Origin: Pseudomonadota bacterium
GTDB taxonomy: Bacteria; Pseudomonadota; Alphaproteobacteria; Rickettsiales; SXRF01
Direction: 5' to 3'
DNA: 64,000 bases
NCBI GenBank assembly: GCA_038043465.1
Contig: JBBTBX010000002.1
Location: 110,944-174,943 of the forward strand
Numbering within the stretch: the stretch's first letter is position 1; the number at the start of each line of letters is the position of its first letter. Below, one piece after another: positions 6,765 through 64,000 of the stretch. A program made the position numbers and the translations under genes. The notes beneath the pieces were generated by a model. It was not told the DNA's origin, searched no databases, and saw only the letters and a list, made by a program, of their open reading frames with translations.

Positions 6765-7880
6765 ATGCAGTTTGTTATTGAGCGTACGAATTTATTGAAA
6801 AGTCTTGGCCATGTGCAGTCAGTTGTTGAGAAACGTGGGACTATTGCGGTTCTTTCAAATATAAAAATTGACGCTAAAGGTAGCGAAGTGTCACTGACCG
6901 CCACTGACATGGATATAGCAGTTGTCGAAAAAGTTCCGGCGGAAGTAAGCAAATCCGGTTCAACCACAGTTCCGGCACATACGCTTTATGACATTGTCCG
7001 CAAGCTTCCTGAAGGATTGCAAATTGAGCTGACAACCAGTGATGACGGCAGTAAGATTGCCATTCGCGCTGGACAATCCCGCTTTTCGCTTGCTTGTCTT
7101 CCTATCGAGGATTTTCCAGTTATGGCGGATGGTGAATTCAGCCATAATTTTTCTCTTAAATCAGCAGAATGTTTGGCACTCATTGAAAAACCCAGCTTTG
7201 CTATTTCCAATGAGGAAACCCGTTATTATCTGAATGGTATATATGTGCACGTAGCTGGTAGTGGTGATGAAAAAGTCCTGCGGGCGGTTGCCACGGACGG
7301 GCATCGCCTTGCTCGTGTTGAAGTTGCTGTTCCTGCTGGTGCTGATGGAATGTCAGGAGTTATTGTGCCACGTAAGACTATTCAAGAACTGCGTAAATTG
7401 TTAGAAAATGGGGAAGGGGATGTTGAAATCTCCTTGTCTGAAACTAAAATCCGTTTTGTTTATGGCGATGCGGTGCTGGTTTCCAAGTTAATTGATGGTA
7501 ATTTCCCTGATTATGAAAGAGTAATTCCAGCCGCCAATGAAAAGCTCATGGAAGTAGACTGTAAAATATTTAAGGATGCGGTTGACCGCGTATCGGTTAT
7601 TTCTTCCGAAAAATCGCGTGCTATTAAGTTGCAATTGGAAAGTGGGAAGCTGACTCTGAACGCAGGAAGCGGGGATCAGGTGGCATCTGAGGAAATAGAG
7701 ATAAACTATTCATCTACCCCGATTGAGATTGGTTTTAATTCACGCTATTTGCTCGATATGATGACTCAGATTGATGGTGATACCGTCCAATTCCTGCTCA
7801 ATGATGGTAATTCTCCGGCATTGGTGCGCGATACTGCCGATGTCAGTTCACTATACGTGATAATGCCGATGCGGGTATGA
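6765..7880 (+). CDS. dnaN: DNA polymerase III beta sliding clamp
   Basis: 371 aa. MQFVIERTNLLKSLGHVQSVVEKR... and C-terminal ...LYVIMPMRV are typical of DnaN. Confidence 0.95.
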   Translation: MQFVIERTNLLKSLGHVQSVVEKRGTIAVLSNIKIDAKGSEVSLTATDMDIAVVEKVPAEVSKSGSTTVPAHTLYDIVRKLPEGLQIELTTSDDGSKIAIRAGQSRFSLACLPIEDFPVMADGEFSHNFSLKSAECLALIEKPSFAISNEETRYYLNGIYVHVAGSGDEKVLRAVATDGHRLARVEVAVPAGADGMSGVIVPRKTIQELRKLLENGEGDVEISLSETKIRFVYGDAVLVSKLIDGNFPDYERVIPAANEKLMEVDCKIFKDAVDRVSVISSEKSRAIKLQLESGKLTLNAGSGDQVASEEIEINYSSTPIEIGFNSRYLLDMMTQIDGDTVQFLLNDGNSPALVRDTADVSSLYVIMPMRV

Positions 7881-8431
7881 CTAATCTCCAGAGAATAAAA
7901 TGCTTTTTGGCGTTGCCTTTTTTGTGTCTGCTTCTGGTGTCATGTATCTACGTTACTGATATTGGCAAGTATTGGCAGAAGGGGATTATCGACCAATCTA
8001 TTGGTGGAGCATGGCTTAGCGGCGATGATGGCAAAGATTGCATGTCATTTGTTGTATCTGGTAAGAATTATCTGGCGATTGATAATGGAAAGAAAGATTC
8101 GTCTTTATATCGTACATTGCTTTTGGGCGATAAAAAATTCCTGATGGTAAAAGATCCGAATAATAAATATATGCTGATAAAATATACAGTGTCTGAGGAT
8201 AAATTTACGACCTATATGCCCGACGAAACCAAAAAAGAAGATTTTCTCCGTGATTACCCTGATTCCGGTATGATTTTCGGCGAGGGTGATTTTACAACTG
8301 CCACCATTCCTGTCTTAAATGAAAAATCAATTGAGATGCTAGAGAAAATCGCTGGCGATGAATCCTATTGGAAACCGGCTTCAGTGCAACAACGTGTGAA
8401 AAGCTGTAAAACTCCTGATGTCAAGCATTGA
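7877..8431 (+). CDS. hypothetical lipoprotein inserted between dnaN and recF
   Basis: 184 aa. Lipobox LLVSC near the N-terminus. The start overlaps the dnaN stop (ATGA) and the end overlaps the recF start by 14 nt. Confidence 0.55.
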   Translation: MTNLQRIKCFLALPFLCLLLVSCIYVTDIGKYWQKGIIDQSIGGAWLSGDDGKDCMSFVVSGKNYLAIDNGKKDSSLYRTLLLGDKKFLMVKDPNNKYMLIKYTVSEDKFTTYMPDETKKEDFLRDYPDSGMIFGEGDFTTATIPVLNEKSIEMLEKIAGDESYWKPASVQQRVKSCKTPDVKH

Positions 8432-36870: not shown

Positions 36871-39036
36871 CTAGGCAGTTTTCTTGGATTTATTATCTTG
36901 CAGAATACTGTTAATAAATTCGCGCCCGTTCTGATTATCAACGTAATGAATCAGTGTTATCACCACTCTCTGGTCAAAATAATTACCTGAATTATCCAAA
37001 AGGAATTTGTTAGCTGCCTCAATCGACATAGCATCACGCCATGAACGCGGGCTTATCATGCCGATGAAGGAATTGGCAACTGCTATAATACGTGCAGGCA
37101 TAAGAATTTTTTCTCCTTTTAACCCAAGCGGCCCCGCTCCATTCCATCTTTCCTGCCATTGTTTAAGAATTTCTGCAACTGGACCATCAAAGGAAACTTT
37201 TTCCAATAAAGATGACGCTGTATCCATCGAATGCCGTATTATATTCTTTTCATCTTCATTTAACTGACCGGTTTTAGTTAGAAGCTCCGTCGGAACTACT
37301 ATTTTTCCTATATTCATAAGGCTGGCAGCAGTTCTTGTAGCTTCTACTGTCACGCTATCCAATTCCATATCGCTTGCGATCTGATAAGAAATTTTTGATA
37401 CCAGAAGTGAATGATTAGCTGCAAATGGGTCACGCTTATCAACCAGATTAAGTAGAGTTTGCACCAGTTGCTTCTGTGTTGAAAGCCTGCGTTCACGTTC
37501 GTAATAAACCTCACTGATATCCTGCTCTACTATCAGCACCCCAGATGTTTTTGGAGGCAGGTTAGATACCGGTATTTCCTTGATAGGTACGTATCCGGAA
37601 CGAATGACAACTTCTCCTCCACCGGTATTTTTATGATAGACATCATACGTTGAATAGCCATTTTTCATAACTGTGGAGCATTTTTCTTCAATCCGTTCAG
37701 CATGGATTGTGCCTTGCACGTCAAAAACAGTTTTACCAGCTATGCTTTCTACAGACATTCCTGATTCTTCAGAAACTTTTTTATTGGCGAACCAATATCT
37801 TTGATTGGCATCAAGTATATATATGGCTTCCGGTTGGTAATCCGTAACCAGACGCAACAGATTTTCCTGTGCCTGAGCCTGAATCGCCACCTTTTTGAAG
37901 TAGCTCGATGCCATAAGTGCATGACGTGAATAAGCATACCACCACATAGCGATAATTATCAGAACTATAACGGCAATAATAAGGGTAAAGGATGTGACGA
38001 GAGCGGCGCGATGCGCACCACTATCAGAAAAAGCTTCATCCTTATCCACCTTCGTAATTAATTTCCAGTTAGTGCCACTTATATCACGAGATGTCGCCAA
38101 AACTGCCTGTTCACGATAGTCGCCAAGTTCAGAAGAAAAATTATCCTTGCCACTTGTAACATAAGCCTCAGCATTTTCTTTGGGATTAAGCTGATTTTTT
38201 TTTACCAAGGCTTCACTTCCATCCAGCAGAGGTGAAATATATTCCATTTTATCCTTGGTATCTTCAACCATACGGAGCAGCAATGTCTCAAGAGTTTTCT
38301 CAGTAGCACCCGGTTGTTTCAATAGACCAAATAAATTATCGCCTATTGTTTTTATGGCGACAATTCTACCTATCTGCCCTGCTGCATTATGCTCTCCCTG
38401 AATTGAATAAATTGGCACTGAAAAACCCATATACAGAGTCCCGTCAGAATCCTTCTGCAGTTCAATAAGACCTTCTGTTCCTGCCCCCTGTTTTTTTGCA
38501 TGTTCCAGAACTTTAGTTACGGAGGAATTTATAATCTGCGTACTAACAACTATCTGGTTGTCATCATCTATAATAGCAAGACCGCTTTTGCTATCAGCTA
38601 CCACATTCGCAGGAATGGAATCAATGCTGTTAGTTCCTATAAAACCTGCGCGTTGCGCGGTAAATACCAGTAAATTCCTTAAATAGGATTTTTGTGATAG
38701 TTCGGAATCACCACCTTTATTTACCGCTTGCGGAATCATCTGCAGTTCAGTCAGATATAGCTTAAGAGATGGATTATCCGCCAGCGTACGTAATTCAGCA
38801 AAGTTACCGGATATAAAACGGCTGACATCTTCTTTCCGGTTTTCCGCAATTAAGTTCAGCTTTTCCTTCCACGACTGCACATCGCGCACATAATCATTAT
38901 TATTAAAACGGGATATAAGCAGAAGACCAACTATAATAATACCAAACACCATTAAAACTATGGCATAAGTCCATGGTGTTTTATATTCTTTTGCTGCTTG
39001 AGAAAATTCCTCATGTGAGGGGAGTATCTCTGTCAT
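36871..39036 (-). CDS. membrane receptor: TM - periplasmic Cache-like domain - TM - PAS-like - degenerate HD-GYP domain
   Basis: 721 aa. TM1 at about aa 22-44, about 300 aa extracytoplasmic, TM2 at about aa 345-368, PAS-like aa 390-510. The C-terminus aligns by eye to HD-GYP, but it has LMNIGK for (L)HDIGK, WQERWNGAGPLG for HHERxDGxGYP, and AVANSF for AVADxxDA. AAGGAG-like RBS upstream of ATG 39036. Confidence 0.7.
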   Translation of the reverse strand: MTEILPSHEEFSQAAKEYKTPWTYAIVLMVFGIIIVGLLLISRFNNNDYVRDVQSWKEKLNLIAENRKEDVSRFISGNFAELRTLADNPSLKLYLTELQMIPQAVNKGGDSELSQKSYLRNLLVFTAQRAGFIGTNSIDSIPANVVADSKSGLAIIDDDNQIVVSTQIINSSVTKVLEHAKKQGAGTEGLIELQKDSDGTLYMGFSVPIYSIQGEHNAAGQIGRIVAIKTIGDNLFGLLKQPGATEKTLETLLLRMVEDTKDKMEYISPLLDGSEALVKKNQLNPKENAEAYVTSGKDNFSSELGDYREQAVLATSRDISGTNWKLITKVDKDEAFSDSGAHRAALVTSFTLIIAVIVLIIIAMWWYAYSRHALMASSYFKKVAIQAQAQENLLRLVTDYQPEAIYILDANQRYWFANKKVSEESGMSVESIAGKTVFDVQGTIHAERIEEKCSTVMKNGYSTYDVYHKNTGGGEVVIRSGYVPIKEIPVSNLPPKTSGVLIVEQDISEVYYERERRLSTQKQLVQTLLNLVDKRDPFAANHSLLVSKISYQIASDMELDSVTVEATRTAASLMNIGKIVVPTELLTKTGQLNEDEKNIIRHSMDTASSLLEKVSFDGPVAEILKQWQERWNGAGPLGLKGEKILMPARIIAVANSFIGMISPRSWRDAMSIEAANKFLLDNSGNYFDQRVVITLIHYVDNQNGREFINSILQDNKSKKTA

Positions 39037-39095
39037 TTTATTTCTCCTTTATAATGTCTTATGTAGCAAATTTATTTAGCAATATGAAGAAAAAT

Positions 39096-39737
39096 CTACA
39101 TTCTCGGGCGATATGTCCACCAGTAATCCTCATTTACTCCATATATTGGCCGGTAGTGGTATATATTCATTGCCGGAATAACATGCTTAATTTGATTATC
39201 GAGAATTATCATATTACTATCATCATCATATACGCCAAGTATAGCGTGAATGATGCCGCCAAGATTTAAGTCCTGGACTATAATAATCCGCATCCTATCC
39301 TCTGAAATGCCAAGTGCGCGCAAGGAATAATACTTGGAAATAGCATAATCTTCGCAATCGCCACTCACTTCCATAAATTCGTAAGGTGTTTCCCAATAGT
39401 CATTAATCCCCCAATTTAATTGATCAACTATATATGGATGAGAATTAGACCAGTCATTCACTTTATCTAATTGCTCCTTTAGGGGCTTGCCTTTTAATTC
39501 ATCAAGCATCTGCCCCCACCCTTTTATCGCGCAAGGATGATAACGGACAGTTCCACAATCATCATCTGCAATCCCCTGCTGATTTTCAAAGCGGGTCATC
39601 ACGCCTGTCCATTTAGGAAATGGAGTAAGATTCCCAAACCTCAATTCACTCATATCAAAATAGGAATTTCTGGATGCGTATGATCGCGCGGAATACAATG
39701 TAACCGACATAAAAATGCAAAGCAGGATTACACCCAT
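39096..39737 (-). CDS. bacterial transglutaminase-like cysteine proteinase (BTLCP, LapG family), periplasmic
   Basis: Signal peptide MGVILLCIFMSVTLYSARSYA. Cys-His-Asp triad context GDCEDYAISKY ... IHAILGV ... ILDNQ with family-typical spacing. The track start at 39884 would translate through a repeat element, so I trimmed to ATG 39737. Confidence 0.75.
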   Translation of the reverse strand: MGVILLCIFMSVTLYSARSYASRNSYFDMSELRFGNLTPFPKWTGVMTRFENQQGIADDDCGTVRYHPCAIKGWGQMLDELKGKPLKEQLDKVNDWSNSHPYIVDQLNWGINDYWETPYEFMEVSGDCEDYAISKYYSLRALGISEDRMRIIIVQDLNLGGIIHAILGVYDDDSNMIILDNQIKHVIPAMNIYHYRPIYGVNEDYWWTYRPRM

Positions 39738-39765
39738 TCCAACTGAAAAGTTGGGATGGGTATAC

Positions 39766-39811
39766 GAAAATCGAGGCCGAAAGCCCGATTTTTCGACGCG
39801 TAGCAGGCGTA
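39766..39811. repeat. short hairpin repeat (copy 1 of 2)
   Basis: gaaaatcgaggccgaaagcccgatttttcgacgcgtagcaggcgta. A near-identical copy lies at 41214-41258 in the same orientation. Confidence 0.65.
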
Positions 39812-40268
39812 CGAACTTTAAGAATTCCCAATTCTTGAAGTGCAAAAAATATACTATAGAATTTTTTTTATAAGGATGATTCATAATGTGGCTTTATACT
39901 ATATAAATTGAGCTATACCTCAAACTTTTCTTCTTTGCCATTGTGTTTTTTTTATCACACCAAGAACATAAATATATGCCAAAGAAGTTTTTCTTTTACA
40001 ACAAACATTAACTGATATTCTGAGCATATATTTCGGATACGTAACAAATAAACTCTAGAATAATTAAGGGTTGCAGAGAGTTATTATATATTCCATATGC
40101 GAAATGAACATGCTGTTATTTTATTTATAAAGCTGTAATCTATATTGTTTTTGCGAATAAGTGGTTTTTCTCATTAATGGAAAATTAATTATTAATGCGT
40201 ATAGAATGGAGCTATATTCATTTGCATGGTGTAACTGGATATATGTAATTACATTAATGGAGTATATT

Positions 40269-40580
40269 ATGACTATTGCAAAAAAATCTGCTAAAAAGCC
40301 AGCTGCTAAAAAAGCTGCTGCTAAAAAACCAGCCGCTAAAAAATCTGCTGCTAAGAAGCCAGCTGCTAAAAAGTCTGCTGCTAAAAAACCAGCTGCTAAA
40401 AAAGCTGCTGCTAAAAAACCAGCTGCTAAAAAAGCCGTTGCTAAAAAAGCCGTTGCTAAGAAACCAGCTGCTAAAAAAGCTGCTGCTAGAAAACCAGCTA
40501 AAGTTTCTAAACCAAAAGCTAGCTTGAGCTTAGCTGCTAAGTCTCTTTCTGGTAAAAAAGTAACTCCAATCCGCCTCTAA
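40269..40580 (+). CDS. histone H1-like Lys/Ala-rich nucleoid-associated protein
   Basis: ATG 40269 preceded by [34 protein letters not shown]... is low-complexity AKKPAAKK repeats. Followed by a strong terminator. Confidence 0.65.
40290..40500 (+). repeat. about 30-bp tandem coding repeats (KKPAAKKxAA units)
   Basis: About five well-conserved 30-bp units gctgctaaaaaaccagctgctaaaaa(a/g)(g/t)ct, then degenerate units. Confidence 0.8.
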
Positions 40581-41208: not shown

Positions 41209-41213
41209 GCTAT

Positions 41214-41258
41214 GAAAATCGAGACCGAAAGCCCGATTTTTCACGCGTAGGCAGCGTA
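41214..41258. repeat. short hairpin repeat (copy 2 of 2)
   Basis: gaaaatcgagaccgaaagcccgatttttcacgcgtaggcagcgta. Compare 39766-39811. Confidence 0.65.
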
Positions 41259-43976: not shown

Positions 43977-44201
43977 ATGAAGCCAATTGATATAGAAAAT
44001 TTTGATTTTTCACATCTTAGTCTTAATGAAAGAGTTATGCTTGCAGAAAGATTATGGGATAGCATCGAAGAGCATGTTAAGCAAAAACCTCTTACTGACG
44101 AGCAAATGGATGAAGTGGAAAACCGTATAAAATCTTATAAAGCAGGAGAAATGGAGACTTCTACATGGGATGAAGTAAAAAGCCGATGGGACTCTTTATA
44201 A
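43977..44201 (+). CDS. addiction-module antitoxin (short helical 'addiction module component' type)
   Basis: 74 aa. ...LSLNERVMLAERLWDSIEE...EVENRIKSYKAGEMETSTWDEVKSRW. AGGAG RBS. Followed after 6 nt by a RelE/ParE ORF. Confidence 0.65.
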   Translation: MKPIDIENFDFSHLSLNERVMLAERLWDSIEEHVKQKPLTDEQMDEVENRIKSYKAGEMETSTWDEVKSRWDSL

Positions 44202-44207
44202 GTTAAT

Positions 44208-44516
44208 TTGATGAAATATAAAATTGTAATAACAAAAGCTGCTGACCGTGACTTTATAAAAGATTTTTTGTGGTACGCTAAAGAAAACTCTGATTTAGCA
44301 AAAAGATTTAGAGAAAGTATCAAAAAAGAGATAAAGTTTTTATCGGATGCGCCTTTTGCTTGTGCATTAATTTCAAAAGAAGCAAGACAAGTCATATCTC
44401 ATAAATTTCCCTATCGTATAATTTTCATAATTGAAGATAATAATGTTGTAATAATTGCAATACTGCATGTAAAACGCTCTCCAAGCATTTGGAAAAAACG
44501 AATCACTAACCATTAA
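44208..44516 (+). CDS. RelE/ParE-family toxin
   Basis: 102 aa. ...HKFPYRIIFIIEDNNVVIIAILHVKRSP is a typical C-terminal toxin core. Confidence 0.7.
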   Translation: MMKYKIVITKAADRDFIKDFLWYAKENSDLAKRFRESIKKEIKFLSDAPFACALISKEARQVISHKFPYRIIFIIEDNNVVIIAILHVKRSPSIWKKRITNH

Positions 44517-45859: not shown

Positions 45860-47674
45860 ATGCCTCGTAGAGAAGAATCTCCTATACATTACTCCCCATA
45901 TGATCCTGAGGCTGGAGCAGCAGGATCTAACCATCTTGCTGAATATGGTCATGTACGTCCAGATAGAGAACTTGGTTATAGATTCCAAGATGCTGGTCGT
46001 GGTGCTAAGTTCGATGCTGAAGGGAACATACTAACTAATGCAAATAGAGAAATTATTGTTGTAAGCCCCGATAGGGATCCTGTTCTTAAAAAAGCAATTG
46101 AAGAAGCTAAAACTTCACTATCTCAAATACCCTCACATGAAGAAAAAGTTAAGTATATTGCTGATTACGTTGATAGTTTGATGAAGGAAAAAAACGCTGC
46201 AAAAAATGAGCAAATTTTAGAGAGTATAGTCGGCGGACCGACTGAAGGGAAAAAAGTATCACTAGGTCAGCTAATTGAGAACGGAACAGGTGTTTGCCGT
46301 CATAGGTCATTATTGTTCAAAGCAATTGCTGATGAAATAGGGATACCAAGTTCTGTTGATAAAGGCAGTTATGTAAATGCAGATGGCACTAAACAAAATC
46401 ATCAATGGAATAAAGTTGAGCTGCCAAATGGAAAAGATCTTATTGTTGACACAATGAGCAAGAGTGAAAAAGTTATTGGCATGGGTCACCCCAGAGTCAA
46501 TATTTATAGGGATATTAATGGCAAGCCACTATATCAAGATGCGTATTCAATACAAAATGCACTTACAAGTAAATCTAAAAGTGGTGACGTAATAACTTAT
46601 AAAGTAAGTGAAAATGGAGTTGATTTTGGGGCTATTGCGATTAGAGGAAGTGCCGAAGAATTAGGAGATTTAAAGAAAGCTTTAAACAAAGAGGGTATCA
46701 AAACAGCAGAAGTTAGAACAGATAGTACTATCGGTAATTATCTTAGTATAAGCAATAGGCGTGATTTCAGAGAAAGATTTGAATTTGAAAGTGTTTCTGT
46801 CTATCCTCAAGTGCGTACGTTACAAGAAAAAATTACAAATAAATCTGCTTCTGGCGATGTCGTATCTTATAATACCAATAAAGGCACTACGTTATTGATT
46901 AGAGGTAATACAAAGGAATTAAAAGGTTTTGAAGATCAGTTTGCAAAAATTGGAATTAAAACAGAGATAGGAAGTGATGCCAGGCTTGGTGAATATATAC
47001 GTCTAAAAAGTGATAGTGTACGTGAATTCCACATATTATTTGATGTTAAACCTGTACCAATAACTGAAGCAATATCTAAAGCTGAAGCAATGTCTAAAAA
47101 TCCTGATGCCACTCCTAACAAAGGCGGCATTAAAGCAGCAATAGAAGATGGCAAAGGTCTTCTTAAAAAAGCTTTTAAATTATTCCCCGGTGTTGCAATT
47201 GTTGCTGTTGCCCCTGAAGTTTTTGCTAAAACCACTGAGATTGCTGATGACAGAACAGCGAGTGTGCAGGAAAAGTTGGTTTCATTTGGACATAACTTTC
47301 TTAGGGGTGGAGCTGATATCACTTTGGGAGCTATTGGTGGTACAGCAGCACAAGAAGGCTTAGAGAAAGCTGCAATGGCAATGGGTGCCAAAAAGGAACT
47401 TCTTATACCGCTTGATAGAGAAGGACTAGGGATTAAAAACAGGGATGATGTGGCCCAGCTTAAGCAAGACGCTGGCAATTACAGGGAAAATTTCGGTAAA
47501 CCAAAAGAAATAATGTCAGATGTCAAATTCGCTAAGGCTATGCAGGAGGCAAAAGATAAAGGTTTAACTGGTAAAGACTATAAACCTGTTGAATCTGATC
47601 AAAACATGAAGCCCGTAGTAATAGCGCAAAAAGCTCCGCAAGTCTCTTCTGATAAAAGCATGCTAATTAATTAA
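45860..47674 (+). CDS. hypothetical protein with CTR1/EDR1-like transglutaminase/papain-fold domain plus two internal about 80-aa repeats (effector candidate)
   Basis: 604 aa. [58 protein letters not shown] carries Cys146, His181 and Asp197 in triad order. Repeats at aa 231-312 and 321-397. Confidence 0.55.
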
Positions 47675-57021: not shown

Positions 57022-60000
57022 CTACAACAAGAAATCGCTCGCTGCCAGGGTATGCAGTCCGGTTAGTTCGATTTGCATATCGAGCGTGCCGTTACTATCA
57101 GCGTCTATGCCGATAATAGTGTTGCCGGAAACTTGTGCATAATTAACCCCAGCTACTGAACCACCCAAAGCACCTGTGCCTTTAAAAGTGAAGCTTCCGG
57201 CGAAATCAGTAAGGTCGATTTTATCAGTGCCTTTAACGAAATCAGTGATAATGTCACGTACACCTGTCGCTTTTCCAGAATCAGTTATTGCGCTGAATTT
57301 AAACACATCAGCACCAGCACCGCCAGTCATGGTGTCTTTTCCAGTCCCGCCAGTTATAATATTGGCAAGGGTATTTCCCAGCAATGTATCGTTGTAAGTA
57401 GAACCAGTTAGATTTTCGATATTAGTGAGTATATCGCCGGCAGCAAAGCCACCAGATTGCGCGGTGGTAACAGCCAGATTTACATTCACTGCCGCTGTGG
57501 AGTTAGCGTATGAAACTGTATCAATCCCTGCCCCACCATTGATGTTATTAGCAACTGAGCTGCCTGTAAATGTGTCGTTCAAAGGTGAACCAATAATGTT
57601 TTCAATGCTGATTAGCGTATCGTCCTGAGCATGACCGCCAGATTGAGCGGTGGTGATTCCGAGATTTACATTAACTGCGGCAGTAGAAGCTGCGTAGGAC
57701 ACAGTATCAGTTCCCACCCCTCCATCAAGTATATCAACTCCGGTGCTTCCGGAAATTGTATCATTACCATCAAGGGCATAAATTACTTCATTACCGGCGA
57801 TTCCAGCCAGGATGTTATCCGCTGTGGTTCCGGAGATTATTTTAGCGACATTAATTTTGGCAGTGGCAGTGTTTGAAATAATACCGTTAGAATCTTTAAC
57901 GCTATAGGTAAAACTATCCATACCGTTATATCCTGCGGTCGGGGTATAAAGGATTGTGCCATCGGTAGCATTAATGCTCACTGTGCCGTGTGCAGGAGTG
58001 GTCAAACCAGTTATACTGCTAGCAAAGAGAACTGTCTCAACATCATTATCATTAGCCAGAACATTAAGTTTAGTCGCGGTGTTTTCGACAACCACAAAGC
58101 TGTCGTTAGTCGCCACAGGAATATCGTTTACCGGTGTCACCGTAGCATCAACAATCAGAGTGCTGGTTGCGCCGAATGAATCGGTTAGTTTTATGGTGAT
58201 TTTATCAATCCCGTTGTAATTAGGCTTTGGAGTATAAGTTATCATATTGCCGGCAAAGCTGATACTGGCATTAGGTGAGGAGACGGAATTGATGGTAAAA
58301 GCATTGCCGTCCGGATCATAAAAATAGCTATTCACATCAAAAGTTGCTGGAGTATCTTCAGTAAATGTAATGGTGCTGCCTGTCTTAAATTTAGGAGAGT
58401 CATTAATTAGAGTTACATTTATTGTAGCTGTAGCAATGTTGGAAACCAACCCCTGCGAATCAGTAACTGTATATTTAAAACTATCCTGTCCGTAGAAATC
58501 AGCTTTTGGTGTGTATAACACCTTGCCATCACTTTGGATTGCAACTGTACCATTTGTCGGCTGGGTAGTTATTTTAATATTAGCTGCCGGGAAGAAACCA
58601 TCTTCCACATCCGAATCATTGCTCAGAATAGTTATAAGGGCGGTGCTATCTTCACTGATTGTGATGACATCATTAGTTGCCACAGGCGCATCATTTACCG
58701 AAATAATCGTGGCATTTACCGTTTTGGTATCAAAACCACCATTGCCATCAGAAATCGTGTAGGTGAATGAATCAGTGCCGAAATAGTTTTTGGAAGGAGT
58801 ATAAAATAACTTACCACCGGAAATGCTGGTAGAGCCATGCGCCGCACCGCCAGCAGAATATATAGTCATGGTATTATTTTCTATATCAGTCGCACCAACC
58901 AGAGCCAGCACTTCAACTGGTGTATCCTCATTGGTTGTTATAGTTTTGTTCAGTCCCACCGGAGCATCATTAACCGGTGCCACATTAACACTGATAGTTT
59001 TGCTCTGGCTTACACCGGCTGCGTCTTTATAGGAAATAGTAAAACTATCAGTGCCAAAATAATTAGCTTTTGAGGTGTAAATTATATCACCGCTGGTATT
59101 TACAGAAGCTGTGCCATTCACGGCAGCCCCTGAGATAATAATATTTTTATAATCAGCACTACCATCATTTTTATTAAGCAGTTTTATTTTTGTGGCTACA
59201 TCCTCATTAACTACCACATAACCATTCACAGAATAAACCGTGGATACAGGTTCAATAGAAGCCGCATTGGTCAGGTTGAATTTTGTTCCATCAGCAAATT
59301 GGATATATTCCATGCGGTTATTGTCGGTAGCGAAAAATTTGCTGACTAATATAGAATCGGTTTTCCCCTGAGTTACTATACGTAGATCATCACCAACCCG
59401 AATCATTGCCATAGTAGAAGATAAAATACCAGTACCCAGCACTATTTTATCGCCAACACCACCGGATTCGGTAAGAATATCACTACCATAACCAGCGTCA
59501 AAATTATAGGTATCAACTCCACCGCCACCTCTTAAAATATCATTACCGATGCCGCCATTGATAATATCAATATCTTCACTGCCATAGATATAGTCATTAC
59601 CCGCAGCTCCACTCAGATTGTCGGCAAAAGGTGTTCCGATTATTATATCATCTGCCGCACTGCCAGTCACAGTAATTGCCTTGGTGATATCAATGATTCT
59701 GCCATCGGCAAATTTAAGGGTTTCTACCCGGTAATTGGAGTTAGTGAAGAAATTATTGATAGTTACTCGGTCATTGGCACTGTAGCTTATAATTAGATTA
59801 GTTCCGGATGCCTCCATCAATATATCCTGCGGTACTATCCCAGCCCCAAATACTATCTGGTCAGCACCCGTATAATCAGAAAGCGTATCCTGTCCATCAC
59901 CAATGTTGAAGATATAGACATCGTTACCTGTGCTTCCATCAATAATATCATTGCCTTTGCCAGCGTTAATAGTGTCATTACCGCTATAGCCATAGATGGT

Positions 60001-63000
60001 GTCGTTGCCAATATTGCCAGTTAAATTATCATTAAAACTAGCCCCCACCAGAGTTTCACCGGTAGTTTTAGTGCCAAGTAAAGTAAGCCCACCTGATAAA
60101 TCTAATATGCTGCCATCAGCGAATTTAAGGCTTTCGATTTTATAGTTGCTTCCAGAATTACTAAAAAAGCTTTTTAGTGTTATCTGGTCGCCATTCGTTC
60201 CAACTTTAATAATCAGTGACTGGCTATTCGCATAATCGGAAATAAGCTGAATGCCAGCCTTGGCAATCCCCGTGCCAAACACTATCTGGTCGATTCCGGT
60301 GTAATCAGTAATCGTGTCCTGCCCGTCACCGACATTGAAGATATAAGTATCATTGCCGCTATAGAAACTGCTGTTATCAATAATATCATTACCTTTACCG
60401 CCGGTGATAATATCATTGCCTTCATTACCGTAAATTGTGTCAGCTCCTATATTTCCGGTCAGGGTATCATTGGAATATATACCGTACAAGGTTTCGCCTG
60501 TGGTTTTTGTCGCGCTTAAAGTTAAACCAGTTGTTAAATCCAATACACTGCCATCAGCGAATTTAAGGCTTTCGATTTTATAGTTGCTTCCAGAATTACT
60601 AAAAAAGCTTTTTAGTGTTATCTGGTCGCCATTCGTTCCCACTTTAATAATCAGTGACTGGTTATTAGCGTAATCCGAAATGAGCTGAATATTGGCTTTT
60701 GTTATCCCCGCGCCAAAAACTATCTGGTCAGTTCCGGTGTAATCAGTAATCGTGTCCTGCCCATCGCCGACATTGAAGATATAAGTATCGTTGCCGCTAT
60801 AGAAACTGCTGTTATCAATAATATCGTTGCCTTTTCCACCATTTATCGTGTCATTGCCTTCATTACCGTAAATGGTATCCGCCCCGATATTCCCGGTCAA
60901 CACGTCATTAGAGTATATACCGTACAAGGTTTCGCCTGTGGTTTTTGTCGCGCTTAAAGTTAAACCAGTTGTTAAATCCAATACACTGCCATCAGCGAAT
61001 TTAAGGCTTTCGATTTTATAGTTACTTCCAGAATTATTAAAAAAGCTTTTTAGAGTTATCTGATCGCCATTAGTACCAACCTTGATAATCAGCGACTGGC
61101 TATTAGTATAATCGGAAATGAGCTTGATAGATGCCTTGGTTATCCCCGCCCCGAACACAATCTGGTCAGTTCCGGTGTAATCATAAATAGTGTCTTGCCC
61201 ATCACCAATATTGAATATATAACTATCATTGCCTGAATAATAGGTGCTACCACCATCGATAATATCATTACCCTTACCACCAGTGATAGTGTCATTACCT
61301 TCATTGCCGTAAATTGTGTCATTACCGATATTGCCAGTCAGCACATCATTAGAGTATATCCCAAACAAAGTTTCGCCTGTGGTTTTTGTACCAACCAGCG
61401 TTAAACCAGTGGTTAAATCCAGCACACTGCCATCAGCAAATTTAAGAGTTTCGATTTTGTAATTACTGTCTTGCGTATAAAAGAAATTCTTTAAACTTAT
61501 CTGGTCGCCATTCGTGCCAATTTTTACAATCAGCGACTGGTTATTAGCATAATCAGAAATCAGTTGAATATTGGCCTTGGTAATCCCCGCACCGAACACA
61601 ATCTGGTCAGTTCCAGTGTAATCATAAATAGTATCCTGCCCGTCACCGACATTAAAGATATAGGTATCGTTACCCGAATAGAAACCACTTCCGCCATCGA
61701 TAACATCATTACCCTTACCGCCAGTGATAGTGTCATCGCCAGTACCACCAACGATATTATCATTCCCACCCAGCCCCTTTATCACATCATTTTTTGATGT
61801 TCCAGTTAAGGTTTCCGCCAAATCCGTGCCAGTCATGAGTGAGCCGATATTCGCAAGGCTGAGGCTGCTGCCATCGACAAACTCCAGCGTTTCCACGCGA
61901 TTGGTAGTAGCAACATAAAAATTCTTGATGCCTATCTTATCGCCAGCCGTACCAATATTAATCACCAAATCATTTCCCACCTGCGCGTATGACACATCCG
62001 CCGCGCTGATGCCGTCACCCAGCAAAATCTTATCCATCCCCGCATTATCATCAATCGAATCCTGCCCATCGCCACGGCTAAAACGATAAATATCATTACC
62101 AGCGTCGCCTTTCAGAATATCATTGCCCTTACCGCCCACAAAATAATCATTCCCAGCGAAGCCATAGAGTTCGTCGTTAGCGGCATCGCCATGCAGTATG
62201 TCATTTTTGGTTGTGCCGTAGAGTATGTCGATCTCCGATGTGCCATAATTAAGCCTGCCATCGAAGGTGAAGCCGGAAGGAATTGCCAGGGTTGCAATGC
62301 TGGCTGTCAGCGAATCAAGCTTACTGTCGAACGCAGCATCATTAAACTGGTCCTTGTTGAGTTTCAGGATATTTTCGGCGTAATAGATATAATTAGTGAA
62401 GCTGTCTGAGTTTATGGCTTTGGCTTTTATCGCAGCGATAGCTTCATCGAGCGTGCTGCCGATGGTGAGTTTGTCGCTGGCGAAGTCGTAACTGGCATTA
62501 GGGAATACATCATGCAGCACCGATTGCACCAGAAACTTATTCAGGAAATAATTATAGAACATGTCCCATGCCTGCTGCGCCAGCGGAACACCAGTTTGAG
62601 TGCGGTTGAAGAAATCACCACCGGTAATCTTCTCCATGAAGGCTGTCTTTTTGGCAGAGAATGGTATATAACCAAAGGCGGAATCATAAACATCAGCACT
62701 GGTGACATTCTGGACACCCGCCCAGCGGAAGAGGAACGCCTCGAACTTGTCGCCAAGCAGATAGAAGTCTTTAGGCTGGGTGGCTGCAAGGTCTTTCGCC
62801 ATCGCAAGTAAAGTCGGGTCGAGAGTCATTGCTGCCTGCCATGAATAGAGGCTGCCGTAACCACGGGAATAAGGAAGCAGTAAACTATCAACGCTAAGTT
62901 TGAATGTAGAAGGCAGGGTAAAGTCAGGATTGGTAAACACAGTCGGAGTTTCGAAGCCGAAATTAATCTCATGGATGTTTCTTACGTTGCCATTGGTAAA

Positions 63001-64000
63001 TTTAACAGTGGAAACGGCAGTCTGCATGTTTCCGGAGATTGTTTGTAAATTAGCATATTTAATAAGAGATATTTCTGTCACACCGTTAGCCGTCAGTGTG
63101 GTTAATTCTCCGGTGTCAACTGTTCCATCCGCATCTTTATCATTCCACAGTTTTAATAACGAGAATTGAGTATCGGTAGCATTAATTAAATTGTCTTTAT
63201 TGGAATCATATTTACTCAGTTCTGCAAAACCGTTGACGCTAGGATTGCCGAACATTTCATTAACATTATCAATATTGCCGTTGGAGTTTTTATCAACTAC
63301 TAAGAAAACATCGTCACCATTCGCCTTAGTCCATCCGGTATTCTCTTTCGTTCCATTACCATCGAGATCGAAGAGCGCGGTTGCAGTTTGCCACGAATTA
63401 AGAGCAATACCATTGCCATTTAGGTCAATAATGAGTGGATCGATTAAACTTGCCGCACCCGCCTTAGCGAAGACCTCATTCGCCTGCTTAATCAAAAGAT
63501 CAGCATTCGCAGCGTTTTTTTCTGCATTATCGTCAATCCCGTCACCATCCAAATCCACAAGCTTCGGTATCGTTATCCCCATGAACGTATAATCAGCCTT
63601 CGGATCGTAAGTCGATTTGAAGAAGTTTTTGATGATTGCGGCAGAATCAGAGTCGGAAGCGGCAACCAGATCATTACCCTGCTTCTGGAAAATGACATCA
63701 CCAAGCTGATAAAGATCCCTACCGACAGCTTTGGCAGTGCCAGTAACGGTGGTATTATTAAAGACGATTTTATCTCCATTTTCTGCATCGGTGATGGTGT
63801 CTATTCCTTCGCCACCAGCAGATAAAAATATGTCATTCCCTGCCCCACCAGTCAGCGTGTCCTTCCCACCACCGCCAATGATAATATCATTACCGCCACC
63901 ACCAGAGATAGTGCTGATTCCTTCGCCACCAATCAGCAAATCATTTCCACCTGAGCCATTAATTAAATTATCACCCTTACCATCAACAAACAGATTGACT
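57022..64000 (-). CDS. giant RTX / cadherin-like calcium-binding adhesin, type I secretion substrate (5' end beyond right edge)
   Basis: More than 2320 aa inside the window. The frame is still open at 64000 (I translated 63940-63999: ...VNLFVDGKGDNLINGSGGND...). Many GGxGxD nonapeptides, tandem modules, five VNDAP-bounded Ig/cadherin-like modules, and a C-terminus ...GGAGADVFKF...DFVKGTDKIDLTDF...ASDFLL typical of T1SS substrates. Confidence 0.9.
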   Translation of the reverse strand, partial: VNLFVDGKGDNLINGSGGNDLLIGGEGISTISGGGGNDIIIGGGGKDTLTGGAGNDIFLSAGGEGIDTITDAENGDKIVFNNTTVTGTAKAVGRDLYQLGDVIFQKQGNDLVAASDSDSAAIIKNFFKSTYDPKADYTFMGITIPKLVDLDGDGIDDNAEKNAANADLLIKQANEVFAKAGAASLIDPLIIDLNGNGIALNSWQTATALFDLDGNGTKENTGWTKANGDDVFLVVDKNSNGNIDNVNEMFGNPSVNGFAELSKYDSNKDNLINATDTQFSLLKLWNDKDADGTVDTGELTTLTANGVTEISLIKYANLQTISGNMQTAVSTVKFTNGNVRNIHEINFGFETPTVFTNPDFTLPSTFKLSVDSLLLPYSRGYGSLYSWQAAMTLDPTLLAMAKDLAATQPKDFYLLGDKFEAFLFRWAGVQNVTSADVYDSAFGYIPFSAKKTAFMEKITGGDFFNRTQTGVPLAQQAWDMFYNYFLNKFLVQSVLHDVFPNASYDFASDKLTIGSTLDEAIAAIKAKAINSDSFTNYIYYAENILKLNKDQFNDAAFDSKLDSLTASIATLAIPSGFTFDGRLNYGTSEIDILYGTTKNDILHGDAANDELYGFAGNDYFVGGKGNDILKGDAGNDIYRFSRGDGQDSIDDNAGMDKILLGDGISAADVSYAQVGNDLVINIGTAGDKIGIKNFYVATTNRVETLEFVDGSSLSLANIGSLMTGTDLAETLTGTSKNDVIKGLGGNDNIVGGTGDDTITGGKGNDVIDGGSGFYSGNDTYIFNVGDGQDTIYDYTGTDQIVFGAGITKANIQLISDYANNQSLIVKIGTNGDQISLKNFFYTQDSNYKIETLKFADGSVLDLTTGLTLVGTKTTGETLFGIYSNDVLTGNIGNDTIYGNEGNDTITGGKGNDIIDGGSTYYSGNDSYIFNIGDGQDTIYDYTGTDQIVFGAGITKASIKLISDYTNSQSLIIKVGTNGDQITLKSFFNNSGSNYKIESLKFADGSVLDLTTGLTLSATKTTGETLYGIYSNDVLTGNIGADTIYGNEGNDTINGGKGNDIIDNSSFYSGNDTYIFNVGDGQDTITDYTGTDQIVFGAGITKANIQLISDYANNQSLIIKVGTNGDQITLKSFFSNSGSNYKIESLKFADGSVLDLTTGLTLSATKTTGETLYGIYSNDTLTGNIGADTIYGNEGNDIITGGKGNDIIDNSSFYSGNDTYIFNVGDGQDTITDYTGIDQIVFGTGIAKAGIQLISDYANSQSLIIKVGTNGDQITLKSFFSNSGSNYKIESLKFADGSILDLSGGLTLLGTKTTGETLVGASFNDNLTGNIGNDTIYGYSGNDTINAGKGNDIIDGSTGNDVYIFNIGDGQDTLSDYTGADQIVFGAGIVPQDILMEASGTNLIISYSANDRVTINNFFTNSNYRVETLKFADGRIIDITKAITVTGSAADDIIIGTPFADNLSGAAGNDYIYGSEDIDIINGGIGNDILRGGGGVDTYNFDAGYGSDILTESGGVGDKIVLGTGILSSTMAMIRVGDDLRIVTQGKTDSILVSKFFATDNNRMEYIQFADGTKFNLTNAASIEPVSTVYSVNGYVVVNEDVATKIKLLNKNDGSADYKNIIISGAAVNGTASVNTSGDIIYTSKANYFGTDSFTISYKDAAGVSQSKTISVNVAPVNDAPVGLNKTITTNEDTPVEVLALVGATDIENNTMTIYSAGGAAHGSTSISGGKLFYTPSKNYFGTDSFTYTISDGNGGFDTKTVNATIISVNDAPVATNDVITISEDSTALITILSNDSDVEDGFFPAANIKITTQPTNGTVAIQSDGKVLYTPKADFYGQDSFKYTVTDSQGLVSNIATATINVTLINDSPKFKTGSTITFTEDTPATFDVNSYFYDPDGNAFTINSVSSPNASISFAGNMITYTPKPNYNGIDKITIKLTDSFGATSTLIVDATVTPVNDIPVATNDSFVVVENTATKLNVLANDNDVETVLFASSITGLTTPAHGTVSINATDGTILYTPTAGYNGMDSFTYSVKDSNGIISNTATAKINVAKIISGTTADNILAGIAGNEVIYALDGNDTISGSTGVDILDGGVGTDTVSYAASTAAVNVNLGITTAQSGGHAQDDTLISIENIIGSPLNDTFTGSSVANNINGGAGIDTVSYANSTAAVNVNLAVTTAQSGGFAAGDILTNIENLTGSTYNDTLLGNTLANIITGGTGKDTMTGGAGADVFKFSAITDSGKATGVRDIITDFVKGTDKIDLTDFAGSFTFKGTGALGGSVAGVNYAQVSGNTIIGIDADSNGTLDMQIELTGLHTLAASDFLL
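57850..59260 (-). repeat. five tandem about 95-100-aa cadherin/Ig-like coding modules
   Basis: Each module is bounded by VNDAPV / INDSPK / VNDIPV and contains ...YTP..(N/D)(Y/F)(F/Y/N)G.DSF.Y... Confidence 0.75.
59290..62300 (-). repeat. tandem coding repeats (RTX nonapeptides + about 100-aa beta module), period 411-441 bp, about 7 copies
   Basis: Anchor word tgccatc(a/g)(g/a)c recurs at 59700, 60111, 60549, 60987, 61428 and 61869. The copies starting at 60111 and 60549 share about 90 identical consecutive nt at one end and about 75 at the other. Confidence 0.85.

Follow-up and report, generated by a model that had tools for sequence, protein, structure and literature searches.

A protease and receptor gene pair

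The window analyzed here is a 64,000-nucleotide stretch of contig JBBTBX010000002.1, a 287-kb contig of a Hainich groundwater metagenome whose organism is labeled Rickettsiales. Its minus strand carries a dvhG-like protease gene (39096..39884; 262 aa as the longest open reading frame, ORF) and a dvhD-like gene encoding a 721-aa inner-membrane receptor (36871..39036), separated by a 59-bp intergenic spacer (39037..39095) whose coding strand has no terminator-like hairpin. An earlier note on this DNA had reported two same-strand genes 59 bp apart, and both ORFs are present as described; in promoter and terminator scans, match counts did not rise above those of shuffled sequence. The note interpreted the pair as a Lap-like inside-out switch in which a catalytically dead HD-GYP domain is the sensor and a Cache domain faces the protease. 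Our comparisons indicate that this interpretation is probably right, in that the pair is a full-length homologue of DvhG/DvhD (DVU1019/DVU1020) of Desulfovibrio (Nitratidesulfovibrio) vulgaris Hildenborough (Karbelkar et al., PNAS 2024, PMC10990149).

The protease matches the Pfam BTLCP family (PF06035, E-value 5e-15) and carries the motifs GDCEDY at residue 175, IIHAIL at 211 and ILDNQ at 227, bearing out the Cys-His-Asp context (GDCEDYAISKY, IHAILGV, ILDNQ) read previously. Its triad, C177, H213 and D229, aligns with those of LapG from L. pneumophila and from P. fluorescens, as well as with those of DvhG-like proteins, and the catalytic cysteine is flanked by D176 and E178 (D-C-E), the counterparts of the LapG/DvhG calcium-site residues. 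Both the triad and the calcium site of DvhG are therefore kept in the window protease. In DvhG the calcium-site residues are D316 and E318, and cleavage at [T/A/P]AAG is calcium-dependent (PMC10990149; PMC13090378). Desulfovibrionaceae DvhG-like ORFs score 106-132 bits against the window protease, above the solved LapG structures in the PDB (4fgo, 94 bits; 4u65_E, 73 bits), and the window protease shares with the DvhG-like sequences a PKW motif that precedes the BTLCP core. By homology, we infer that the product is a periplasmic, calcium-dependent BTLCP cysteine protease. A cysteine pair N-terminal to the core (C110/C118, C-x7-C; 39531-39557, minus strand), which may form a periplasmic disulfide, is kept in both alphaproteobacterial clades described below and mostly absent from Desulfovibrionaceae DvhG-like proteins.

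The receptor begins with a transmembrane helix (aa ~22-44; 38905..38973) identified by hydropathy and contained in a helix spanning residues 22-86 of an AlphaFold2 (AF2) model built with 27 homologues (mean predicted local distance difference test score, 75). It continues with a periplasmic dCache domain (aa ~45-343; 38008..38904), a second transmembrane helix supported by hydropathy and AF2 (aa ~344-368; 37933..38007), a cytoplasmic PAS domain (aa ~390-506; 37519..37869) and a C-terminal degenerate HD-GYP domain (aa ~528-700; 36937..37455), all encoded on the minus strand. Pfam assigns PAS_4 to residues 401-487 (E-value 9e-8) and HD_5 to residues 528-691 (E-value 9e-31), so that hydropathy, Pfam and the AF2 model together agree with the layout originally proposed. 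Pfam returned no Cache-domain match on the receptor sequence, and the Cache-like nature of the periplasmic region was borne out by fold and profile comparison only. The dCache domain contains two strongly conserved helices, 'LADNPSLxLYxTELQ' and 'QKSYLRNLLxFTAQRxGF', which include invariant alignment columns.

Homology to DvhG/DvhD

The arrangement of a BTLCP protease gene preceding a membrane receptor gene is also that of LapG/LapD in P. fluorescens and its relatives (PMC3032545, PMC3032553, PMC4359373). LapD, too, uses a degenerate c-di-GMP (cyclic di-GMP)-metabolizing domain as a receptor, and exerts inside-out control over periplasmic proteolysis of an adhesin secreted by a type I secretion system (T1SS). 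Unlike LapD, the window receptor has no LapD/MoxY periplasmic domain, HAMP, GGDEF or EAL domain in Pfam and NCBIfam scans, and its membership of the LapD family was rejected on the absence of these defining domains. LapD and the window receptor are analogous, not homologous, and the protease is homologous to LapG.

A phmmer search of the PDB with receptor residues 390-710 returned the PAS/HD-GYP structure of DvhD (9rc0) as top match (E-value 2e-34, 122 bits), together with the DvhD HD-GYP structure 9rbz. The active HD-GYP phosphodiesterases PmGH (4mcw, 63 bits), V-cGAP3 (5z7c) and PA4781 (4r8z), which share the HD-GYP fold (Pfam HD_5), scored at most 63 bits. Bd1817 of Bdellovibrio (3tm8), which we take to be a non-canonical HD-GYP protein lacking part of the GYP motif, gave a weak match (E-value 1.6e-6), far below DvhD; unlike the window receptor it is soluble, has another N-terminal domain, and lacks both a Cache/PAS module and a linked BTLCP. 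In a Foldseek search of the PDB with the AF2 model, 9rc0 and 9rbz ranked first and second. The periplasmic segment had no significant match in the PDB by sequence. Its best Foldseek match was 9rc2, the DvhD periplasmic domain (E-value 3e-8, target TM-score 0.68, 288 columns), which outranked generic dCache structures such as 2p7j (TM-score 0.55). An hhalign comparison of periplasmic profiles, 65 alphaproteobacterial segments (the window receptor and its homologues) against 10 Desulfovibrionaceae DvhD-like segments, gave a probability of 98.3% and an E-value of 2.6e-14 over 255 columns. Profiles and gene order for the Desulfovibrionaceae were taken from relatives at most 62% identical to a fragment of DvhD reconstructed from its alignment in the PDB search. 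The profile searches and structure prediction suggested by the note thus identified all three solved DvhD fragments (9rc0, 9rbz and 9rc2; Font et al., Nat Commun 2026, PMC13090378) as the solved structures closest to the receptor regions that they represent. Taken together, the sequence, fold and profile tests establish the receptor as a full-length DvhD homologue, beyond a merely similar cytoplasmic domain.

The two systems also agree in gene order (protease, then receptor), in receptor length (about 700-730 aa) and in the succession of transmembrane helix, dCache, transmembrane helix, PAS and HD-GYP. They differ in taxonomic position, the window pair being found in Alphaproteobacteria and DvhG/DvhD in Desulfovibrionia. 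The architecture, which the author of the note did not know to have been described, was published in 2024 and 2026 as DvhG/DvhD. The main text of the later paper discusses Desulfovibrionales only, whereas its Supplementary Data 1 lists 78 DvhD homologues, among them those of Oceanibacterium hippocampi, eight Sneathiella species, Kiloniella, Pelagibius, Fodinicurvata and Denitrobaculum (PMC13090378). Two of the listed genera, Oceanibacterium and Sneathiella, also occur with the window family in our scan set (L051, L057), which places the alphaproteobacterial branch within the published family. With architecture and mechanism already published and alphaproteobacterial homologues already listed, the locus opens no new question.

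The state of the HD-GYP domain was read from an alignment of the receptor with PmGH (4mcw). In place of the HD-GYP motifs the receptor has LMNIGK at residue 573, WQERWNGAGPLG at 627 and AVANSF at 652, all as previously noted. The metal ligands of PmGH, which we take to be E185, H189, H221, D222, H250, H276, H277 and D305 (these fit the 4mcw chain after a six-residue offset), correspond to receptor residues F538, H542, M574, N575, S603, W627, Q628 and N655. Seven of the eight ligands are replaced, the only one kept being H542, the counterpart of H189, and the GYP motif reads GAG-PLG. Mapping the ligand positions therefore confirmed that they are not intact, and with seven ligands missing and a degenerate GYP motif, which sets the receptor apart from the active phosphodiesterases, no catalysis is expected. 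Residues M574, N575, W627, Q628 and N655 do not vary among 31 members of the clade to which the window receptor belongs, indicating a fixed state rather than recent decay. Degeneration of the HD, HH and second Asp positions is shared with DvhD, including the change of D305 to N. The replacements differ in detail: HD has become MN in the window receptor and SQ in DvhD, HH has become WQ and MN, respectively, and H250 is also lost in the window receptor, so that seven ligands are gone as compared with six in DvhD, which keeps two of the eight.

DvhD binds c-di-GMP with a dissociation constant (Kd) of 322 nM and controls DvhG in a c-di-GMP-dependent manner in P. fluorescens (Karbelkar et al., 2024, PMC10990149); across both studies, the Kd is about 0.1-0.3 µM and c-di-GMP is not hydrolyzed (PMC10990149; PMC13090378). 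Using DvhD numbering derived from the published landmarks P567-S-R569 and M612-N613, we located the c-di-GMP contacts in the window receptor. L577, K582, M646 and R650 are conserved (as L592, K597, M660 and R664), and Y652 is conservatively replaced by another aromatic residue, W666. At the bridging site, K520 corresponds to R535 and P567 is conserved as P582. According to the published DvhD work, mutations at R650, P567, Y652/R653, M646 and K520 impair c-di-GMP-dependent stabilization; the window counterparts of these residues (R664, P582, W666/R667, M660 and R535) are all conserved or conservatively replaced. The persistence of invariant nucleotide contacts across the clade despite the loss of catalysis argues for selection on binding, and c-di-GMP binding by the window receptor is plausible from its residues.

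Conservation of the pair and genomic setting

A family-alignment scan with one genome per species identified 74 loci, all alphaproteobacterial. These fall into a clade of metagenome-assembled genomes labeled Rickettsiales, with receptors 47-93% identical to the window receptor, and a Rhodospirillales-type clade (31-39% identical) that includes the cultured genera Aestuariispira, Curvivirga, Oceanibacterium, Sneathiella, Roseospira, Tistlia and Paramagnetospirillum. Pairing was counted only in loci with sufficient flanking DNA, 32 of Rickettsiales type and 34 of Rhodospirillales type. In the former, 28 loci have a same-strand BTLCP gene immediately upstream of the receptor gene, and one more locus has a gene in between. 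In the latter, a BTLCP gene is directly adjacent in 25 loci (22 divergent, one same-strand and two opposite-strand), and in one more it lies ~1 kb upstream across a gap. The survey of related genomes called for by the note thus found the protease partner to be kept in 54 of the 66 informative loci (29 of 32 of Rickettsiales type and 25 of 34 of Rhodospirillales type). Among Desulfovibrionaceae the receptor is next to a BTLCP gene in nine of 10 loci, in the order protease then receptor, as in the window. The two genes are co-directional in the Rickettsiales-type clade and in Desulfovibrionaceae, and divergent in most Rhodospirillales-type loci (L005-L078 compared with the window). The pairing has outlasted both this change of orientation and deep divergence, which gives good support to a functional link between the two genes. 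No BTLCP gene was found within 8 kb of the receptor in the Rickettsiales-type loci L012, L016 and L028; in L012, a small lipoprotein-like gene (7502-7990, plus strand) and murA lie upstream of the receptor.

A search with the periplasmic domain returned 334 cluster representatives (50% identity) at E <= 1e-10, nearly all of ~700 aa. The family of dead HD-GYP receptors is therefore sizeable, and its protease partner is kept across deep divergence in two gene arrangements. The automatic names of these homologues are 'HD-GYP domain-containing protein (c-di-GMP phosphodiesterase class II)' and 'HD domain-containing phosphohydrolase'; proteins named in this way would be better treated as c-di-GMP receptors.

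The window receptor is present in identical form on 11 contigs from several samples. DvhG and DvhD are encoded inside a T1SS/adhesin operon, whereas the window pair stands alone among housekeeping genes, with trpA on one side and the dnaK-side region on the other. The pair is likewise an isolated two-gene unit in two relatives from the clade. In Oceanibacterium (L051), by comparison, a T1SS ABC transporter gene, an HlyD protein gene and a second BTLCP gene adjoin the pair. The second BTLCP gene of Oceanibacterium hippocampi (L051:808-1551, minus strand) lies directly beside the T1SS genes (HlyD, L051:1548-2966; ABC transporter, L051:2860-5319), ~5.5 kb from the receptor-linked BTLCP gene.

DvhG orthologues mostly carry a signal peptide and no transmembrane anchor, as the window protease probably does, with a hydrophobic h-region and an 'SYA|S' site at residues 52-70. 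Unlike DvhG, the window protease carries a repeat element at its N-terminus, a palindromic sequence of ~130 nt (39735..39865, minus strand) inserted in frame in the region encoding the n-region of the signal peptide. Relatives have an ordinary signal peptide right behind 'MN(H/S)xY(K/R)', and the insertion is absent in two of them (L006 and L009; 66-73% identical). It is kept in a 93%-identical relative, in which the catalytic residues are intact and the spacer between the two genes carries another copy, in inverted orientation, whose opposite strand encodes a similar peptide. Outside the window protease gene, copies of the element lie at 41211-41258 of the window (partial), at L005:2364-2506 (inverted) and at L005:1582-1707. 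The RNA fold of the repeat is more stable than those of shuffled sequences (z = -3.4) and includes a terminator-like hairpin, and the element is reminiscent of the Rickettsia palindromic elements, which likewise interrupt genes without shifting the frame. The signal peptide claimed for the protease accordingly stands as regards its h-region and cleavage-like site, both now split from the ancestral start by the insertion. It is therefore either atypical or begins at M50, the candidate starts being the ATG at 39884 and that of M50 (39735-39737), from which translation would yield a regular signal-peptide h-region with an A-x-A-like cleavage site.

A proposed switch and its alternatives

We consider it likely that the pair is a DvhDG-type (non-canonical Lap-like) system working essentially as published, and by homology with that system we infer nucleotide binding, protease-receptor contact, proteolysis and the identity of the substrate in the window organism. 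In such a system, the upstream gene would provide an exported periplasmic, calcium-dependent BTLCP cysteine protease, and the downstream gene a dimeric inner-membrane receptor whose dead HD-GYP domain binds c-di-GMP. Binding would splay the PAS/HD-GYP stalk helices, and the change would cross the membrane to the dCache domain. This domain, whose most conserved surface helices are the two described above, would then change state and restrain the protease. When c-di-GMP falls, the freed protease would clip the N-terminal anchor of at least one T1SS-secreted surface protein, and the cell would detach. On this interpretation, an experimentally characterized adhesion switch extends to uncultured groundwater Alphaproteobacteria labeled Rickettsiales. 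What is particular here is the uncultured Rickettsiales-labeled clade itself, together with the extra lost ligand, the deleted GYP tyrosine, the separation of the pair from any T1SS locus and the repeat insertion.

Several observations weigh against this interpretation. The receptor shows low identity to DvhD, ~26-35% for its cytoplasmic and ~13-17% for its periplasmic portion, and the protease scores 94.3 bits against a cut-off of 320 in the NCBIfam LapG equivalog model NF045674, which marks it as LapG-like and not as a gammaproteobacterial LapG equivalog. Its N-terminus is interrupted by ~42 extra codons between 'MNHPYKK' and the hydrophobic core of the signal peptide. The 64-kb window showed no T1SS component genes, nor did the 10 kb flanking the pair in two clade relatives, although such a neighborhood is a matter of genomic context and not a trait of the receptor protein. 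The window and the regions around the pair in clade relatives also revealed neither an adhesin with a recognizable retention module nor GGDEF/EAL genes. Among the loci fetched, only unrelated ones from Burkholderiales and Paenibacillus were positive in the GGDEF/EAL scan; the search covered ~0.6 Mb of clade DNA in small pieces of many genomes and is silent on the remaining genome. Within the nucleotide site, DvhD Y523 is conservatively replaced by F538, and a deletion throughout the Rickettsiales-type clade removes Y621, the GYP tyrosine that contacts a phosphate. In place of E668, which specifies guanine, the window receptor has N682 and its clade N or Q, and R569 of the bridging site has become E584.

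Lacking this tyrosine and glutamate, the site may differ in affinity or specificity, and a receptor of the same architecture could sense another ligand, such as 3'3'-cGAMP (cyclic GMP-AMP) or pGpG. DvhD itself binds 3'3'-cGAMP with a Kd of ~0.5 µM (published DvhD work), and the absence of GGDEF genes from the clade DNA searched points the same way. We nevertheless regard a change of ligand as decidedly unlikely, since the receptor keeps most of the canonical c-di-GMP contacts, every residue validated by mutation is conserved or conservatively replaced, and the E668 position varies in Desulfovibrionaceae as well (Q in seven of 10). In addition, c-di-GMP signaling is widespread in Alphaproteobacteria. 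Similarly poor prospects attach to outside-in gating, in which a periplasmic small molecule bound to the dCache domain would govern the protease and the PAS/HD-GYP part would be a mere dimerization scaffold. This alternative draws on the fact that dCache domains are typical extracytoplasmic ligand sensors. A periplasmic ligand was left possible for DvhD by its authors, and LapD is known to signal in both directions (PMC5231407). It fits poorly with the invariance of the HD-GYP nucleotide contacts across a clade that has lost catalysis, and with the response of DvhD to c-di-GMP in vivo.

Far less probable still is that the receptor is an active HD-GYP c-di-GMP phosphodiesterase that merely lies beside the protease gene, as the automatic names of its homologues and the significant HD_5 match would have it. 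The replacement of seven of the eight PmGH metal ligands by non-coordinating residues led us to reject this reading, and the homologous DvhD does not hydrolyze c-di-GMP even with two of the eight ligands in place. We attach as little credence to the pair being a decaying remnant whose protease has lost export through the repeat insertion and has no substrate left. The in-frame insertion of ~42 codons does split the signal peptide, and no T1SS or adhesin locus is linked to the pair. Against decay, both ORFs are intact, the receptor recurs unchanged on the 11 contigs, the 93%-identical relative has retained the insertion alongside intact catalytic residues, and the internal ATG at M50 would restore a normal h-region and an A-x-A-like site. 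Furthermore, Rickettsia proteins are generally known to tolerate in-frame palindromic insertions. Apart from these alternatives, the Rickettsiales-type clade might be a functionally diverged DvhDG branch, responding to another nucleotide or acting on a substrate other than a LapA-like adhesin. Its loss of the GYP tyrosine and of seven of the eight ligands, the replacement of its guanine-reading glutamate and the uncoupling of the pair from a T1SS/adhesin operon prompt this idea, which we think unlikely; if true, the divergence could matter for the attachment and detachment of poorly known, possibly host-associated bacteria.

The RTX protein and neighboring genes

As the substrate of the protease, the note had put forward a giant RTX/cadherin-like T1SS-type protein encoded 18 kb away on the minus strand (57022..64000), of which the C-terminal >2,326 aa, with RTX, HCBP_related, Big_9 and cadherin-like domains, lie within the window. 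The ORF leaves the window and then, after 161 further residues, the source contig, still inside the gene. Extending the contig in search of the adhesin N-terminus therefore gained 161 residues, among which there is no [T/A/P]AAG site, but the N-terminus lies beyond the contig. No retention module or conserved di-alanine site was found in the recoverable N-proximal RTX sequence, and a protein search for the N-terminus returned only matches of <1,000 aa with unrelated N-termini. A metagenome scan revealed a 74%-identical RTX paralogue and a lipase-headed relative, and these, too, lack a retention module and a conserved [T/A/P]AAG site. The paralogue starts ~42 aa further upstream, has 'KAAG' where the window RTX protein has 'KALPS', and was recovered from a sample in which the identical receptor is present as well. 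Distant relatives begin with a class-3 lipase (GHSLGG), a GH19 chitinase-like domain, other enzyme domains or a hydrophobic helical region. This variety suggests a family of T1SS cargo proteins with varied heads, unlike LapA-type adhesins with a retention plug. Given that its closest relatives are RTX proteins with varied enzyme N-termini and that its recoverable sequence shows no retention module, the RTX protein is unsupported, and mildly disfavored, as substrate; the switch itself is unaffected by this outcome, and its substrate may be encoded elsewhere. Members of the RTX family sharing the N-proximal region are L100:3-7466, L106:2-1100, L107:9041-11779, P0122 and P0123. Pfam lists an M23 peptidase for the RTX homologue P0181, and PF26745 recurs on many homologues.

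The genes dnaA, dnaN, recF and gyrB also lie within the window. Immediately upstream of the protease gene, an oppositely oriented gene (40161-40580, plus strand) encodes a histone-H1-like, Lys/Ala-rich protein made of AAKKP repeats and contains tandem 15-nt repeats at 40250-40519. In the annotation of the source contig, a ParE toxin/antitoxin pair (~43977-44516, plus strand) is located between dnaK and dnaJ. Finally, a 604-aa protein encoded at 45860-47674 (plus strand) carries an EDR1/CTR1/ARMC3 peptidase-like domain (PF14381, E-value 9e-17), a family best known in eukaryotes.

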